This document shows positions 1 to 8,324 of a stretch of 9,345 bases of DNA, piece after piece. Below the pieces are notes generated by a model that was given only the letters and a program-made list of their open reading frames with translations, had not been told where the DNA came from and ran no database searches. The DNA lies in the IMG/VR virus record IMGVR_UViG_2545824708_000014; one strand, given 5' to 3'. Made by a program: the position numbers and the translations under genes. Each line of letters begins with the position of its first letter. Within the stretch, counting starts at the first letter, position 1. The stretch comes from a virus (lineage: Duplodnaviria > Heunggongvirae > Uroviricota > Caudoviricetes).

Positions 1-582
1 TGCCCGTCAGGAGCATACCAGCCTGCCGAATCTGCTTGAGCGTCAGTTCGCAGTACCGGAGCCAGACCGGGTATGGTGTGGAGATATTACGTATCTCTGG
101 GCAGGAAATCGCTGGTGCTATCTGGCGGTTGTTATGGATCTTTTTGCCCGCAGGGTTATCGGCTGGAGTCTGTCAGCGCATGCCGATACCGCACTGATAA
201 GCAGTGCCCTGCGGATGGCCTATGAGACGCGTGGCCAACCCCGGGATGTCGTGTTCCATAGCGACCAGGGAAGCCAGTATACAGGCCTTAAATATCAACA
301 ACTTCTCTGGCGTTGCAGAATAAATCAAAGCGTCAGTCGGCGGGGAAACTGCTGGGATAACAGCCCCATGGAACGCTTCTTCCGCAGTCTGAAAACAGAA
401 TGGGTGCCAACGAATGGTTACGCAGGCAAGGACGAGGCCCGGCAGCAAATTAATGATTACATATTGAACTACTACAACAGCGTCAGACCTCACCATTATA
501 ACGGTGGGCTGACGCCGGAAGAGTCAGAGAACAGATACCATTTTTACTGTAAAACCGTGGCCAATATTACTTGACCACTACA
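1..582 (+). mobile_element. Right-hand portion of an IS3-family insertion sequence (IS911-like); the element continues upstream of the window. Right terminus placed at about 582 (...TGGCCAATATTACTTGACCACTACA).
   Basis: Contains the 3' part of a DDE transposase orfB. The last bases end in CA, and the reverse complement TGTAGTGGTCAAGTAATATTGGCCAC resembles the IS911-type terminal repeat as I recall it (TGAAGTGGTCAA...TGGCCAC). The boundary is from memory, not alignment, and could lie anywhere in 575..610. Confidence 0.7.
2..574 (+). CDS. IS3-family transposase OrfB (DDE integrase catalytic core), 5'-partial; start lies outside the window
   Basis: Frame 2 is open from position 2 to TGA at 572..574. 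Translation ...[35 protein letters not shown]...[10 protein letters not shown]...[22 protein letters not shown]... has the rve/DDE layout of IS3-family OrfB. It is clearly homologous to but distinct from IS3 InsF. Confidence 0.9.
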
Positions 583-881
583 AGGGCCTTAAAGAGCATC
601 TGCCGGACATCGTCCACCACATCATACGAGGCAAACTGACCGCGCTCATCACGCCCGTTACTCAGTATGACAACCACGGAGAAGCCCTCTTTCAGCTCCT
701 GCCAGTAGTCGGTCTGGCTTTTGTTTTCTCCCGGAGAGTCATCACCCGGTACCACATACGCCGCCGGGAGTCTCAACTTTCCGACCTCCGGCAGATTTTT
801 GAACTGTGCCGCGCCTGCCACCCGGTTTTCAAAATACGGGCAGCGGGCACGCAGCGCAGCAATAACAGGCGTCAGTTTCAT
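567..881 (-). CDS. Phage neck / tail-terminator-like protein (DUF3168-like), 3' end interrupted by the IS; the C-terminal residues and stop codon are read from IS sequence
   Basis: 104-aa ORF. Its ATG at 881 overlaps the upstream gene's stop (ATGA), indicating translational coupling. It sits where the tail terminator lies in HK97/SPP1-like gene order. Codons 570..581 (VVVK) and the stop at 567..569 fall inside the putative IS terminus. The family call is from position and general appearance only. Confidence 0.45.
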
Positions 882-1384
882 CTGCGTCGTCGCTCCGGCT
901 TCAGTGATTTACGCAATTCCCGCGCCAGAAAATAGCGTGTCCAGCTGCGGTTCTTTTCAAGCGTTTCCACCATGAAGTTATTACGTGGAGCCAGTCGCCA
1001 GCCGCTGCCACCGGATGCACCACGATGATGGCTGCGACGACGCTTTGCCCCTCGCCTCACGCCATAGAACAAAAAAGCCGGATAAAAATCACCGGTGATA
1101 CGGCGGTTTCCCTCTCCATTACGCTGGTTAGGGGCTATACGTGCCATAAAACCAGGGCGATGTTTACTGGCTCTGGGTACCATGTAACCAATCGAACGTG
1201 CCAGGCGTCCGGTCTGATAACCGGGGTTTTCACCCGGTGCCGACCGCGCACGGCGCATCACCAGCCGACGGGCATCACGCATATGACGCTGACCAATCGT
1301 GACAAACGCCCGCCGGACACGGGCGCGGTTAAAGCGCATCTCCGCGGGCTGCTGAAAATCAACGTGCAAAAAGGAAGTCGTCAT
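878..1384 (-). CDS. HK97 gp10-family phage protein (neck / tail-completion-like)
   Basis: 168 aa, arginine-rich, with motifs TGRLARSIGYMV and FYPAFLFYGV resembling the GxLRxSI and YAxFxEYG signatures of the HK97 gp10 family. RBS GGAGG sits 5 nt before ATG 1384. Confidence 0.7.
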   Translation of the reverse strand: MTTSFLHVDFQQPAEMRFNRARVRRAFVTIGQRHMRDARRLVMRRARSAPGENPGYQTGRLARSIGYMVPRASKHRPGFMARIAPNQRNGEGNRRITGDFYPAFLFYGVRRGAKRRRSHHRGASGGSGWRLAPRNNFMVETLEKNRSWTRYFLARELRKSLKPERRRR

Positions 1385-1769
1385 TGTTGCCTCCGTGACT
1401 CTGCCTACATTCGCCCAGCTCCGTACACTCCAGCAGCAGAAAGCGCCGCGCCCCGTTCAGATCGCGCTGACGTTTCACCCGGTACACACTGTCACCGCAG
1501 ACCACCTCATAATCAGCGGTGATCCCCCGGCGGTAACGAATGGTGATGTAATGGGTGATGGCGTCCCCGGTCTGCGCGGTTTCCTGCCAGGTGGTGGCAC
1601 TGGTCTGGACAACCTTCGCCCATGTCCGGAACGCAACCGGGTATTGAGGCTCCACGCCAAAGTTATCCGCGGGCATATCCACCCGCTGGCGGATCAGGAC
1701 GCGTTTATTCAGTTCACCAGGGTCCGGCAGAATGTAGGTTGCGCTGGTCTGCGCCTGACGAATTTTCAT
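1359..1769 (-). CDS. Phage head-closure / head-tail joining protein
   Basis: 136 aa. Start overlaps the gp6-like gene's stop (ATGA at 1766..1769). It lies between the gp6-like connector and the gp10-like gene, the canonical position for this protein. Its 3' end overlaps the next gene by 26 nt. Confidence 0.65.
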   Translation of the reverse strand: MKIRQAQTSATYILPDPGELNKRVLIRQRVDMPADNFGVEPQYPVAFRTWAKVVQTSATTWQETAQTGDAITHYITIRYRRGITADYEVVCGDSVYRVKRQRDLNGARRFLLLECTELGECRQSHGGNNDDFLFAR

Positions 1770-2089
1770 TGCGGGAAATACCTGTACGGGCCGACAAGCC
1801 AGTTAAAGCTCATTGGCAACTCCATTTTCTCAACGTCTGTAACCGACGAGCGATTTTCGTAAAAATGGCTGATAAGCATCAGCATCCCCAGACGAATATC
1901 ATCCGGCAGGTGCAGCCCGTCCGGATCGCTGTCCGGAATGGTTTCATCCGGTGCATAGAGCTTCCGGTTCAGATACGTTTCCGTCCGCTTTTGCGCCGCA
2001 CAGGCCAGCAGTTGCAGATGGCGGTCATCAGCATCGAAATCCTCATCCAGCCGGAGTTGGGCTTTAATCTCTTCCATTGTCAGAAGCAT
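1766..2089 (-). CDS. Phage gp6-like head-tail connector (adaptor) protein
   Basis: 107 aa. The N-terminus MLLTMEEIKAQLRLDEDFDADD is typical of gp6-like connector proteins (MxLxEVKxHLRID...). It is the first gene after the capsid block. Confidence 0.75.
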   Translation of the reverse strand: MLLTMEEIKAQLRLDEDFDADDRHLQLLACAAQKRTETYLNRKLYAPDETIPDSDPDGLHLPDDIRLGMLMLISHFYENRSSVTDVEKMELPMSFNWLVGPYRYFPQ

Positions 2090-2091
2090 AC

Positions 2092-7357: not shown

Positions 7358-7848
7358 GATTCGATGATTTTCAGAAACGGGTTAGTGGCTTTCTTCTGCC
7401 CCGCCAGGCCAATCAGACGCTGGCGGCTGCTGGGGTCGAGTCCGAGCATTGCCCCCGTGCTGCTCATCTCGGACTCCTGTTCTTTCTTGGCGGTCAGCTC
7501 CGGATTTTTGACCATGCCACCCATTGCACCGGTGATGGTGTTGCCCTGTCTGGCAATATTTTTCACGGCACGTCGCCAGAACTCATAGGCCACGCACCAC
7601 CGCTCAAGTACCGCCAGGTCAGTCACGCACAGCAGGCCCTGACCGCAGAGTTCTTTGGTTGTCAGTTGCCACATGATCGTGGCGAGAGGGAGATCTTCTT
7701 CAGCGAACCACTCCGGTGGCTCAACACCTTTGATGGGCGTAAAAACAGGTTCATCTTTATTCAGGGCTCGCTTGCCGGGGTTTCCGGCCAGCGCCTTGCG
7801 CGCCGTTGGCTTGGGGCGACGCCCGGAACGCCCCGCCGTTCCAGCCAT
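7354..7848 (-). CDS. Phage terminase small subunit, P27 family
   Basis: The N-terminal motif ...[11 protein letters not shown]... is characteristic of P27-family TerS. I chose ATG 7846..7848 (AGGAG 8 nt upstream). The track's longer ORF begins at a GTG at 7857 that abuts the SD. Confidence 0.8.
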
Positions 7849-7898
7849 ATGCGGCACTCCTGGTTAAATTTCATTTTTCGCGGGTATAAAAAAACGAT

Positions 7899-7947
7899 GG
7901 GGCGGGCAGTCCGGAAGACGTCAGGCCGCAGGGATTTGACCCGCCCC
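7899..7947 (-). promoter_or_regulatory. GC-rich dyad GGGGCGGG-N33-CCCGCCCC in the HNH-TerS intergenic region; candidate cos-site region and/or terminator-like structure
   Basis: 8-bp perfect inverted repeat at 7899..7906 and 7940..7947, read directly. On the phage-sense strand it is followed after 4 nt by T7. It lies between the HNH endonuclease and terminase genes, where cos sites sit in HK97-like phages. Confidence 0.35.
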
Positions 7948-7973
7948 TCCCCTCAGGCAGTTGAGAATTATTA

Positions 7974-8324
7974 TCACTTCAACCGTTCACGGGCCGTCTT
8001 CGCCTTATGACACGGCCAGCACAGACTCTGCAGATTACAGTCGGCATCAGTGCCGCCATGCGCTTTAGGGATGATGTGGTCAACGGTTTTCGCCTCGCGC
8101 ACCACACCAGCACGCAGGCACAACTGGCACAGGCCTTTGTCACGCTTGAGCACACGTTCACGGATAACATCCCATTTCGAACCATAACCGCGCTGGTGTC
8201 GGGACTGGCCTGGCTTGTATTGCTTCCAGCCTTCGCTTTTGTGGCTTTCGCAATAGCCTGACGAGTCAGTGGTGGTATGGCGGCAGCCGCGAACGCGGCA
8301 GGCTTTTGGGGTTCGTGGGGGCAT
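7974..8324 (-). CDS. Phage-associated HNH endonuclease
   Basis: HNH motif ...VDHIIPKAHGGTDADCNLQSLCWPCHKAKT... plus an N-terminal Cys cluster CRVRGCRH...YCESH. I chose ATG 8324 because AAGAGGA sits 8 nt upstream; the track ORF extends 21 codons further to 8387 with no RBS. Confidence 0.85.
   Translation of the reverse strand: MPPRTPKACRVRGCRHTTTDSSGYCESHKSEGWKQYKPGQSRHQRGYGSKWDVIRERVLKRDKGLCQLCLRAGVVREAKTVDHIIPKAHGGTDADCNLQSLCWPCHKAKTARERLK

Follow-up and report, generated by a model that had tools for sequence, protein, structure and literature searches.

A head, packaging and neck gene block of Escherichia coli PS1Thumoskin9 is very probably the late-operon module of an e14/SfV-family prophage that lost its tail genes at an insertion sequence

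The phages SfI, SfII and SfV are myoviruses with contractile tails, and SfI packages its DNA by cos, its mapped 10-nt cohesive end being 5'-TGCCCGCCCC-3' (PMC3636060). In SfII the genes for TerS, TerL, a membrane protein, portal, protease, capsid protein, a small open reading frame (ORF), the head-tail adaptor Ad1, the head closure protein Hc1 and Neck1 are followed by those for a 186-amino-acid (aa) tail terminator, a DUF2635 protein, sheath, tube, chaperone, tape measure, a DNA circularisation protein, baseplate and fibres, and finally by int/xis, cI, cro, cII, replication genes, Q, holin, endolysin, Rz and an HNH gene (gp58), which lies at the opposite end of the linear genome from gp1. Phage-inducible chromosomal islands that form capsids (cf-PICIs) are defined in SatelliteFinder by a morphogenesis core together with an integrase, an AlpA-type regulator and a primase-replicase, with holins and tail genes being forbidden (PMC10085698). 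Here we analysed a 9,345-nt stretch of DNA (IMG/VR virus record IMGVR_UViG_2545824708_000014; in the following "the window") that is 100% identical to the chromosome of Escherichia coli PS1Thumoskin9 (NZ_CP180607.1) and carries a block of head, packaging and neck genes. We conclude, with a probability of about 0.96, that this block is the head, packaging and neck module of the late operon of an e14/SfV-family temperate myovirus residing in icd of PS1Thumoskin9, its tail having been lost to a deletion associated with an insertion sequence (IS). The element is an ordinary defective e14/SfV-family prophage that is already annotated, and not a satellite.

A six-frame ORF list of the window contained an unbroken run of minus-strand ORFs from position 8324 down to 567, and profile searches against Pfam and PHROGs assigned identities to the 12 co-directional genes in 583-8324. 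A first-pass annotation of the window had described 12 co-directional head and packaging genes running from HNH and terminases through the capsid to the neck, and both the coordinates and the identities were confirmed. In the order of their transcription the genes, all on the minus strand, encode an HNH endonuclease (7974-8324, 116 aa; PF01844, 5.2e-15; phrog_144; 94% identity to SfII gp58), TerS of the P27 family (Terminase_4; 7354-7848, 164 aa; PF05119, 2.3e-21; phrog_83; 99.4% identity to gp1), TerL (5624-7357, 577 aa; Pfam TerL_ATPase and TerL_nuclease; 98.6% identity to gp2), the small membrane protein YmfR (5430-5612, 60 aa; phrog_502, 2.5e-28; 100% identity to gp3), whose gene is annotated as ymfR in the source record and likewise in K-12 e14, the portal protein (4189-5430, 413 aa, GTG start; PF04860, 2.3e-108; 99.0% identity to gp4) and an HK97-family prohead serine protease (3561-4211, 216 aa; PF04586 Peptidase_S78, 1.3e-31; 99.5% identity to gp5). 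The HK97-type major capsid protein (2341-3546, 401 aa) matches PF05065 Phage_capsid over residues 115-398 (9.5e-79), so that an N-terminal region of ~114 aa precedes the capsid domain, and it is 97.5-98.3% identical to the capsid proteins of SfII and SfIV. It is followed by a small conserved head-module ORF (2092-2292, 66 aa; phrog_1020, 4.3e-44; 97% identity to gp7) without a match in Pfam or NCBIfam, the gp6-like connector and head-tail adaptor Ad1 (1766-2089, 107 aa; PF05135, 3e-10; phrog_40; 100% identity to gp8), Hc1 (1359-1769, 136 aa; PF05521 Phage_HCP, 4.8e-22; phrog_25; 100% identity to gp9) and the tail completion protein Neck1 (878-1384, 168 aa; phrog_879, 7.7e-94; 99.4% full-length identity to gp10). 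All 11 complete block proteins align end to end with their SfII orthologues at 94-100% identity, indicating that they are not degraded.

The count of 12 genes holds for these 11; the twelfth is a pseudogene, a truncated tail terminator gene (583-881, minus strand; ORF 567/579-881) that retains codons 1-101 of 186. Homology proper begins at 583 and the final codons of the ORF run into the end of the adjoining IS. The fragment shows 99% aa identity to residues 1-101 both of SfII gp11 and of the homologue in E. coli MEI2B-1023 (L002 14739-15299; the prefixes L001 and L002 denote coordinates in the source locus and in the MEI2B-1023 locus, respectively), and the source record annotates the gene as incomplete with its C-terminus missing. 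As the full-length homologue of 186 aa matches PF23840 Phage_tail_terminator (2e-26), the earlier impression that the last gene looks like a tail-side terminator was right.

Compared with a phage collection, the 7.76-kb block matched isolated temperate phages, Escherichia phage vB_EcoM-689R6 and the Shigella phages SfII, SfI and SfIV, at 96-98% nucleotide identity over 91-100% of its length. SfV matched at 96.5% over only 45% of the block, consistent with the report that orf3-orf7 of SfI have little homology to SfV (PMC3636060), and Salmonella ST64B and phiP27 matched at 86% and 81%, respectively. The SfV-like phages SfII, SfI, SfIV, SfV and vB_EcoM-689R6 share with our locus the order of head, packaging and neck genes, DNA identity of 96-98%, the SfI cos core and the lambdoid layout of Q, lysis and early genes. 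They differ in that a whole Mu-type contractile-tail module stands right after Neck1, that they integrate at tRNA-thrW and that they carry gtr serotype-conversion genes, whereas the element in PS1Thumoskin9 occupies icd, has intE/xisE and lacks gtr genes, and 11.7 kb of tail genes have been lost from it.

The kinship extends to the packaging site. The intergenic region between the HNH gene and terS holds the cos core TGCCCGCCCC (7899-7908, minus strand) as the single exact match in the window, and read on the gene strand it equals the experimentally mapped 10-nt cohesive end of SfI. The linear genomes of SfI, SfIV and SfV begin inside this same intergenic region; the first position of the SfII record falls at the region's HNH-proximal edge, corresponding to window position 7973. 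HNH proteins help the terminase in HK97-type phages and are packaging accessories of HK97-type cos terminases.

We mapped the loss of the tail by aligning the source locus to the IS-free relative MEI2B-1023, to which it is 97.7% identical, and obtained one collinear map with two interruptions. At the left interruption L002 3285-15000 (11,716 bp) is absent and a 1258-bp ISEc31-like element lies in its place. The lost segment starts in the last 45 bp of the tail-fibre assembly gene plus tfaE, ends at codon 102 of the tail terminator gene and holds the genes for fibres, baseplate, DNA circularisation, tape measure, chaperone, tube, sheath and DUF2635. The replacing element, L001 19325-20582, belongs to the IS3 family and has the ends TGTAGTGG.../...CCACTACA; its last 582 bp of 1258 form positions 1-582 of the window (plus strand), with the C-terminus of the OrfB transposase at 134-574 and the right end ...CCACTACA at 582. 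It is annotated in the source record as an IS3 family transposase with programmed frameshift and is 92.8% identical over its full length to ISEc31 annotated in E. coli strain AST217. Its flanks, GCG and AGG, show no target duplication, an absence that is expected after, and fits, either a deletion or a recombination. Both IS elements that flank the block fit the IS3 family, being 1258 bp each with TG...CA ends and having frameshifted transposases according to the RefSeq annotation. The description of both flanks as IS-disrupted thus stands as far as the presence of the IS elements is concerned, but only the left one is linked to loss of sequence.

Consequently, the contractile-tail module (terminator, sheath, tube, tape measure, baseplate, fibres) is absent from the source prophage, and only remnants of fibre assembly and the terminator fragment are left. 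The window had been said to contain no tail genes, and the module is indeed gone; however, the terminator fragment lies within the window and tail-fibre assembly genes lie less than 0.1 kb past the far (left) end of the left IS.

We then examined the context of the window over 20 kb on each side and in the stretch up to icd. The element starts with icd, cargo genes, intE, xisE, an IS3 copy and a gene for a BRCT-domain protein, followed by an early region with an HTH and Peptidase_S24 repressor, a cro-like gene, ymfL (CII) and replication genes. Genes for a Dam-type methylase, RusA, a KilA-N protein, a DUF968 protein, the Q antiterminator, a DNA methyltransferase, holin, endolysin and Rz come next, and the element ends with IS3, accessory (moron) genes, the 12-gene block, the ISEc31-like IS, a tail-fibre assembly gene, a gp53-like gene, pinE, mcrA and an icd' pseudogene. 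A Pfam scan covering 10 early, late and lysis proteins, with the remaining genes being judged by annotation, confirmed a lambda-type integrase, an excisionase, the HTH_3 plus Peptidase_S24 repressor, CII (PF06892), Q (PF03589) and a lambda-family holin (PF05106, 2.6e-27; L001 31761-32096, six genes from HNH), and also identified a YdaS/cro-like protein, an HTH_36 replication-type protein and PerC. The int/xis, S24 repressor, Q and lysis genes are annotated as intact, and the cassette of Rz, endolysin and holin lies 0.5 kb past the far (right) end of the right IS. MEI2B-1023 and SfII have early regions that are collinear with that of the element and 93-97% identical to it. The statement that lysis and lysogeny genes are missing is correct for the window, but not for the element, as genes for lysis, regulation, replication and integration/excision lie just outside it. 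Inspection of the 20 kb on either side, which the first-pass annotation had recommended, uncovered tail-fibre remnants as well as lysis and cI/cro-type genes and, by the Pfam scan and the annotation, no alpA or pri-rep.

As in K-12, the element is integrated in the 3' end of icd and an icd' duplicate is present, with intE/xisE bordering one side and pinE/mcrA the opposite one. K-12 e14 shares with the element the icd site, the end genes (icd, intE, xisE ... pinE, mcrA, icdC), ymfL, ymfR and the family, and it is also defective by internal deletion. The two deletions are the reverse of each other: in K-12 e14 (15.2 kb) most head, packaging and lysis genes are gone, leaving a ymfN chimera and a beeE portal fragment, while baseplate and fibre remnants are kept, whereas the element of PS1Thumoskin9, whose ~33.6 kb include three IS copies, has a deleted tail and intact genes for head, packaging, lysis and early functions. 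HK97 shares the portal, the S78 protease, the Phage_capsid protein with its N-terminal region of ~114 aa, the gp6-like adaptor, head closure and an HNH gene adjoining cos and terS. HK97, however, is a siphovirus with a lambda-like non-contractile tail, whereas the e14/SfV family combines an HK97-type head with a Mu-type contractile tail. The label "HK97-like" therefore suits the head, but the phage family is e14/SfV-like, in which the early genes are lambdoid, the head is of the HK97 type and the contractile tail of the Mu type.

To see how common each state is, we used 5426 complete E. coli genomes. The intact junction of terminator and sheath (1.2-kb probe, at least 80% coverage) was found in 1033 of them, and the junction of IS and terminator (700-bp probe) was intact in three, PS1Thumoskin9, 602687 and CD45, which were sequenced independently, come from different sources and have a junction that is 100% identical. 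The only near match to the latter junction was the insertion in AST217. These frequencies imply that the tail-bearing state is the norm and that the truncation is a recent, lineage-restricted lesion.

In AST217 an ISEc31 copy (L004 8093-9350) has inserted independently into the terminator gene, 26 bp away, with a target duplication present and the whole tail attached; the junction 582/583 of the window corresponds to L002 15000/15001 and the simple insertion in AST217 to L002 14973-14975. ISEc31-family elements have hence struck the tail terminator gene on two independent occasions, oriented alike each time, the copies being only 92.8% identical, and from these two insertions the gene may be a local hot spot for this IS family.

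Two points limit our conclusion. The boundaries of the element, ~872,837-906,408 in the source record, were set by analogy with K-12 e14, and the tail may have been lost either by an IS-mediated adjacent deletion or by recombination between two IS copies, as the data fit both. Nothing that we found contradicts a tail-deleted prophage. Its significance, small beyond correct annotation, is that it shows an e14-family prophage, intact in other respects, which was inactivated through an IS recently and within a restricted lineage.

From the gene identities and the established biology of HK97, lambda and SfV we infer how the intact relatives would work. Q-antiterminated late transcription would run from holin through HNH and terS to the tail genes. 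A prohead of the HK97 type would be built of capsid protein and matured by the S78 protease, and TerS, TerL and HNH would cut concatemers at cos and pump the DNA through the portal into it. Ad1, Hc1 and Neck1 would close the head and form the docking site, where a Mu-type contractile tail, assembled on its own and with the tail terminator as its cap, would join. In the source strain the ISEc31-like element has replaced the tail genes, and IS3 has inserted in a moron gene between the lysis cassette and HNH. On SOS induction such an element would at most excise, replicate, package and release DNA-filled, tail-less, non-infectious heads. Late expression might be lowered by the IS3 copy that lies antisense between the lysis cassette and the head genes; in lambda, Q-modified transcription usually passes terminators.

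Among the alternatives the one that survives best holds that the tail-deleted prophage is still active, that is, that an SOS signal leads to its excision and replication, that its 33.6-kb genome is packaged from cos into heads of its own making, that the cell is lysed by it, and that the heads can be rescued by free SfV/e14-like tails. Functional phages have near-identical versions of the 11 head, packaging and neck genes, all of which are intact; cos is intact as well, the annotation gives int/xis, the S24 repressor, Q and the lysis genes as undamaged, and 33.6 kb is 77-90% of related genomes (37.1-43.5 kb) and plausibly packageable. The tail terminator, whose gene is truncated here, normally comes with the tail. 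Moreover, tail-less cf-PICI capsids join free tails in lysates (bioRxiv 10.1101/2025.02.11.637232), which provides a precedent, and the sister strain CD45 has further neck and sheath matches elsewhere in its genome. In the source strain, however, the chromosome holds no related sheath gene elsewhere, the neck plus sheath probe, a chimera of an exact neck piece and a reverse-complemented sheath piece, being found in one place only. The element also contains two copies of IS3, of which one sits in the early-left region and the other, which could be polar, antisense between lysis and head genes, and a junction present in only three of 5426 genomes looks more like a recent dead-end lesion than a lifestyle favoured by selection. 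We thus consider an active producer of this kind unlikely, and slightly more doubtful still is the narrower proposal that the prophage is inducible and that its full-size tail-less heads are rescued by free SfV/e14-like tails in mixed lysates or in CD45-like strains. If true, the element would be an analogue of a capsid-forming satellite that arose newly and by accident, and a natural snapshot of the first step from a phage to a capsid-forming, tail-stealing element.

In CD45 (NZ_CP182220.1) the neck plus sheath probe found three places, as compared to one in the source strain, and this strain probably carries a second SfV-like prophage with a tail, to judge by these matches. If so, a tail-less element and a potential donor of tails would be naturally paired in CD45.

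Far less probable, and in our judgement next to impossible, is that the block represents a cf-PICI that makes its own small capsid and packages its DNA while stealing tails from a helper phage. The gene content of the window matches the morphogenesis core (HNH, P27 TerS, TerL, portal, protease, capsid, adaptor, head closure), the window contains no complete tail gene, and the prototype EcCIEDL933, which makes its own capsids and encodes no tails, is built from the same protein families, sharing those of HNH, P27-type TerS, TerL, portal, HK97-type capsid and head-tail adaptor. This core set, however, does not discriminate, as it is common to every SfV/HK97-type phage, and parts forbidden in a cf-PICI are present, namely the lambda-family holin, the tail-terminator fragment, the tail-fibre assembly gene and the gp53-like fibre gene. 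With ~33.6 kb the element is not satellite-sized, which also argues against a small capsid. AlpA and a primase-replicase appeared neither in the Pfam scan of the 10 early, late and lysis proteins nor in the annotation of the remaining genes; in their stead the element has a cI-like S24 repressor, cro, cII and Q.

EcCIEDL933 adjoins phoQ in EDL933 (L009 1-9760; NZ_CP008957.1, ~1,684-1,694.8 kb), and its genes run from a DUF927 primase ... to capsid, protease, portal, head closure, connector, HNH, TerS and TerL, followed by host genes, whereas the order TerS-TerL-portal-protease-capsid-Ad1-Hc1 of the block is the phage order. The island has the DUF927 primase and no holin or tail genes; the element in PS1Thumoskin9 has holin, endolysin, Rz, Q, cI, cro and cII. 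In a protein comparison made against this one prototype the identities were 36.6% for the capsid protein, 30.4% for TerL, 30.6% for the portal, 34.9% for TerS, 36.5% for HNH and 30.4% for Ad1, the protease, Hc1, Neck1 and the terminator gave no significant match in EcCIEDL933, and block and island showed no DNA similarity. The same proteins are 97.5% (capsid), 98.6% (TerL) and 99.0% (portal) identical to those of SfII. The comparison of capsid, TerL and portal that had been proposed to separate the two possibilities hence came out at 97-99% identity to plaque-forming temperate phages versus 30-37% to the prototype cf-PICI.

The decisive evidence comes from relatives that lack the IS elements. 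In MEI2B-1023, MDR_56 and phage SfII the genes for terminator, sheath, tube, tape measure, baseplate and fibres lie directly downstream of the block and holin, endolysin and Rz upstream. MDR_56 carries the same prophage, also at icd, with neck proteins identical by accession and a complete contiguous tail module, and tails are contiguous with the block in 1033 genomes. Tail and lysis genes likewise adjoin the block in AST217. The finding of tail and lysis genes contiguous with the block in IS-free relatives had been named in advance as what would decide for an ordinary prophage; we accordingly rejected a cf-PICI identity, and the lean of the first-pass annotation towards an IS-eroded HK97-like prophage was borne out. 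The case calls for caution in the search for satellites, since a short window over the IS-bounded head module of a common prophage mimics the gene set of a cf-PICI, and the two are told apart by context only, namely by the presence of holin and tail remnants, by which regulator and replicase are encoded and by the identity to real phages.

That the tail deletion is an artefact, a collapse or mis-join of the assembly at a repeated IS, has a negligible chance: assemblies classically go wrong at IS elements and no target duplication accompanies the junction, but the identical junction, at 100%, is common to three independent complete genomes (PS1Thumoskin9, 602687 and CD45) and the rest of the locus is collinear with relatives, and this reading was rejected on the shared junction.

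The second interruption of the alignment lies at the right end of the window and involves no loss. The first 321 bp of a 1258-bp element annotated as IS3-like occupy 9025-9345 on the plus strand (TGATCTTACC...GGATCA), with GAG on both sides. This IS3, with the ends TGATC...GATCA, is a simple insertion with a 3-bp GAG duplication, and the empty site is present in MEI2B-1023. It cuts a moron gene for a 189-aa protein, of which the 5' part remains at 8854-9024 (plus strand; phrog_12494; GAG target site 9022-9024) and which is intact in MEI2B-1023 (L002 23330-23899). Next to it lies a low-GC antisense moron ORF of 111 aa (8475-8810, plus strand; phrog_14397, 6.6e-77; GC 0.38). The two genes thus form a moron of 38% GC that is antisense to the late operon and located between Rz and HNH. 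The claim that nothing else in the window is phage-like is nearly true, but overlooks these two plus-strand ORFs of PHROG families at 8475-9024, for which we found no match in Pfam, NCBIfam, PADLOC or PDB sequences, and it owes its truth to the place at which the window stops. In MDR_56 this slot is taken by iss, in SfII by IS911 together with a hypothetical gene; as its contents differ among the source, MDR_56 and SfII, the interval between Rz and HNH is a site of variable cargo.

The lysis and early regions lie between two identical copies of IS3 that are inverted relative to each other (L001 29025-30282 and 43124-44380). Such a pair makes an inversion possible; an inversion between the two copies was rejected, as the gene order is collinear with that of IS-free relatives.

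Scans of the window with Rfam (gathering threshold) and for tRNAs found none, and a scan of 7800-9100 for promoters and terminators gave nothing exceeding the expectation from shuffled sequence.

The roxA-phoQ site, the position of EcCIEDL933, is empty in the source strain (L010 1749-4406), and the icd site of EDL933 is occupied by a different lambdoid prophage. The cargo that e14-family prophages carry at their ends and where Q meets holin differs from strain to strain and looks defence-related. The source strain carries genes for a HEPN/Toprim-associated protein and a BRCT-domain protein as well as mcrA (L001 41803-42693 and 46893-49345; L010 11402-14257). MEI2B-1023 has a pair encoding a TIR-domain and a caspase-family protein between Q and holin and a pair encoding an AAA ATPase and an HNH protein in the mcrA slot (L002 1-1535 and 25547-26924), and MDR_56 has a gene for a DUF262 protein (L006 5099-6988).

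Finally, the genes for Hc1 and Neck1 (878-1769, minus strand) overlap by 26 nt (1359-1384). The phrog_25 profile, named "head closure Hc1", has 286 positions, of which 22-159 match Hc1 and 163-284 match Neck1. That one profile spans both proteins suggests that Hc1 and Neck1 may be fused in some phages.

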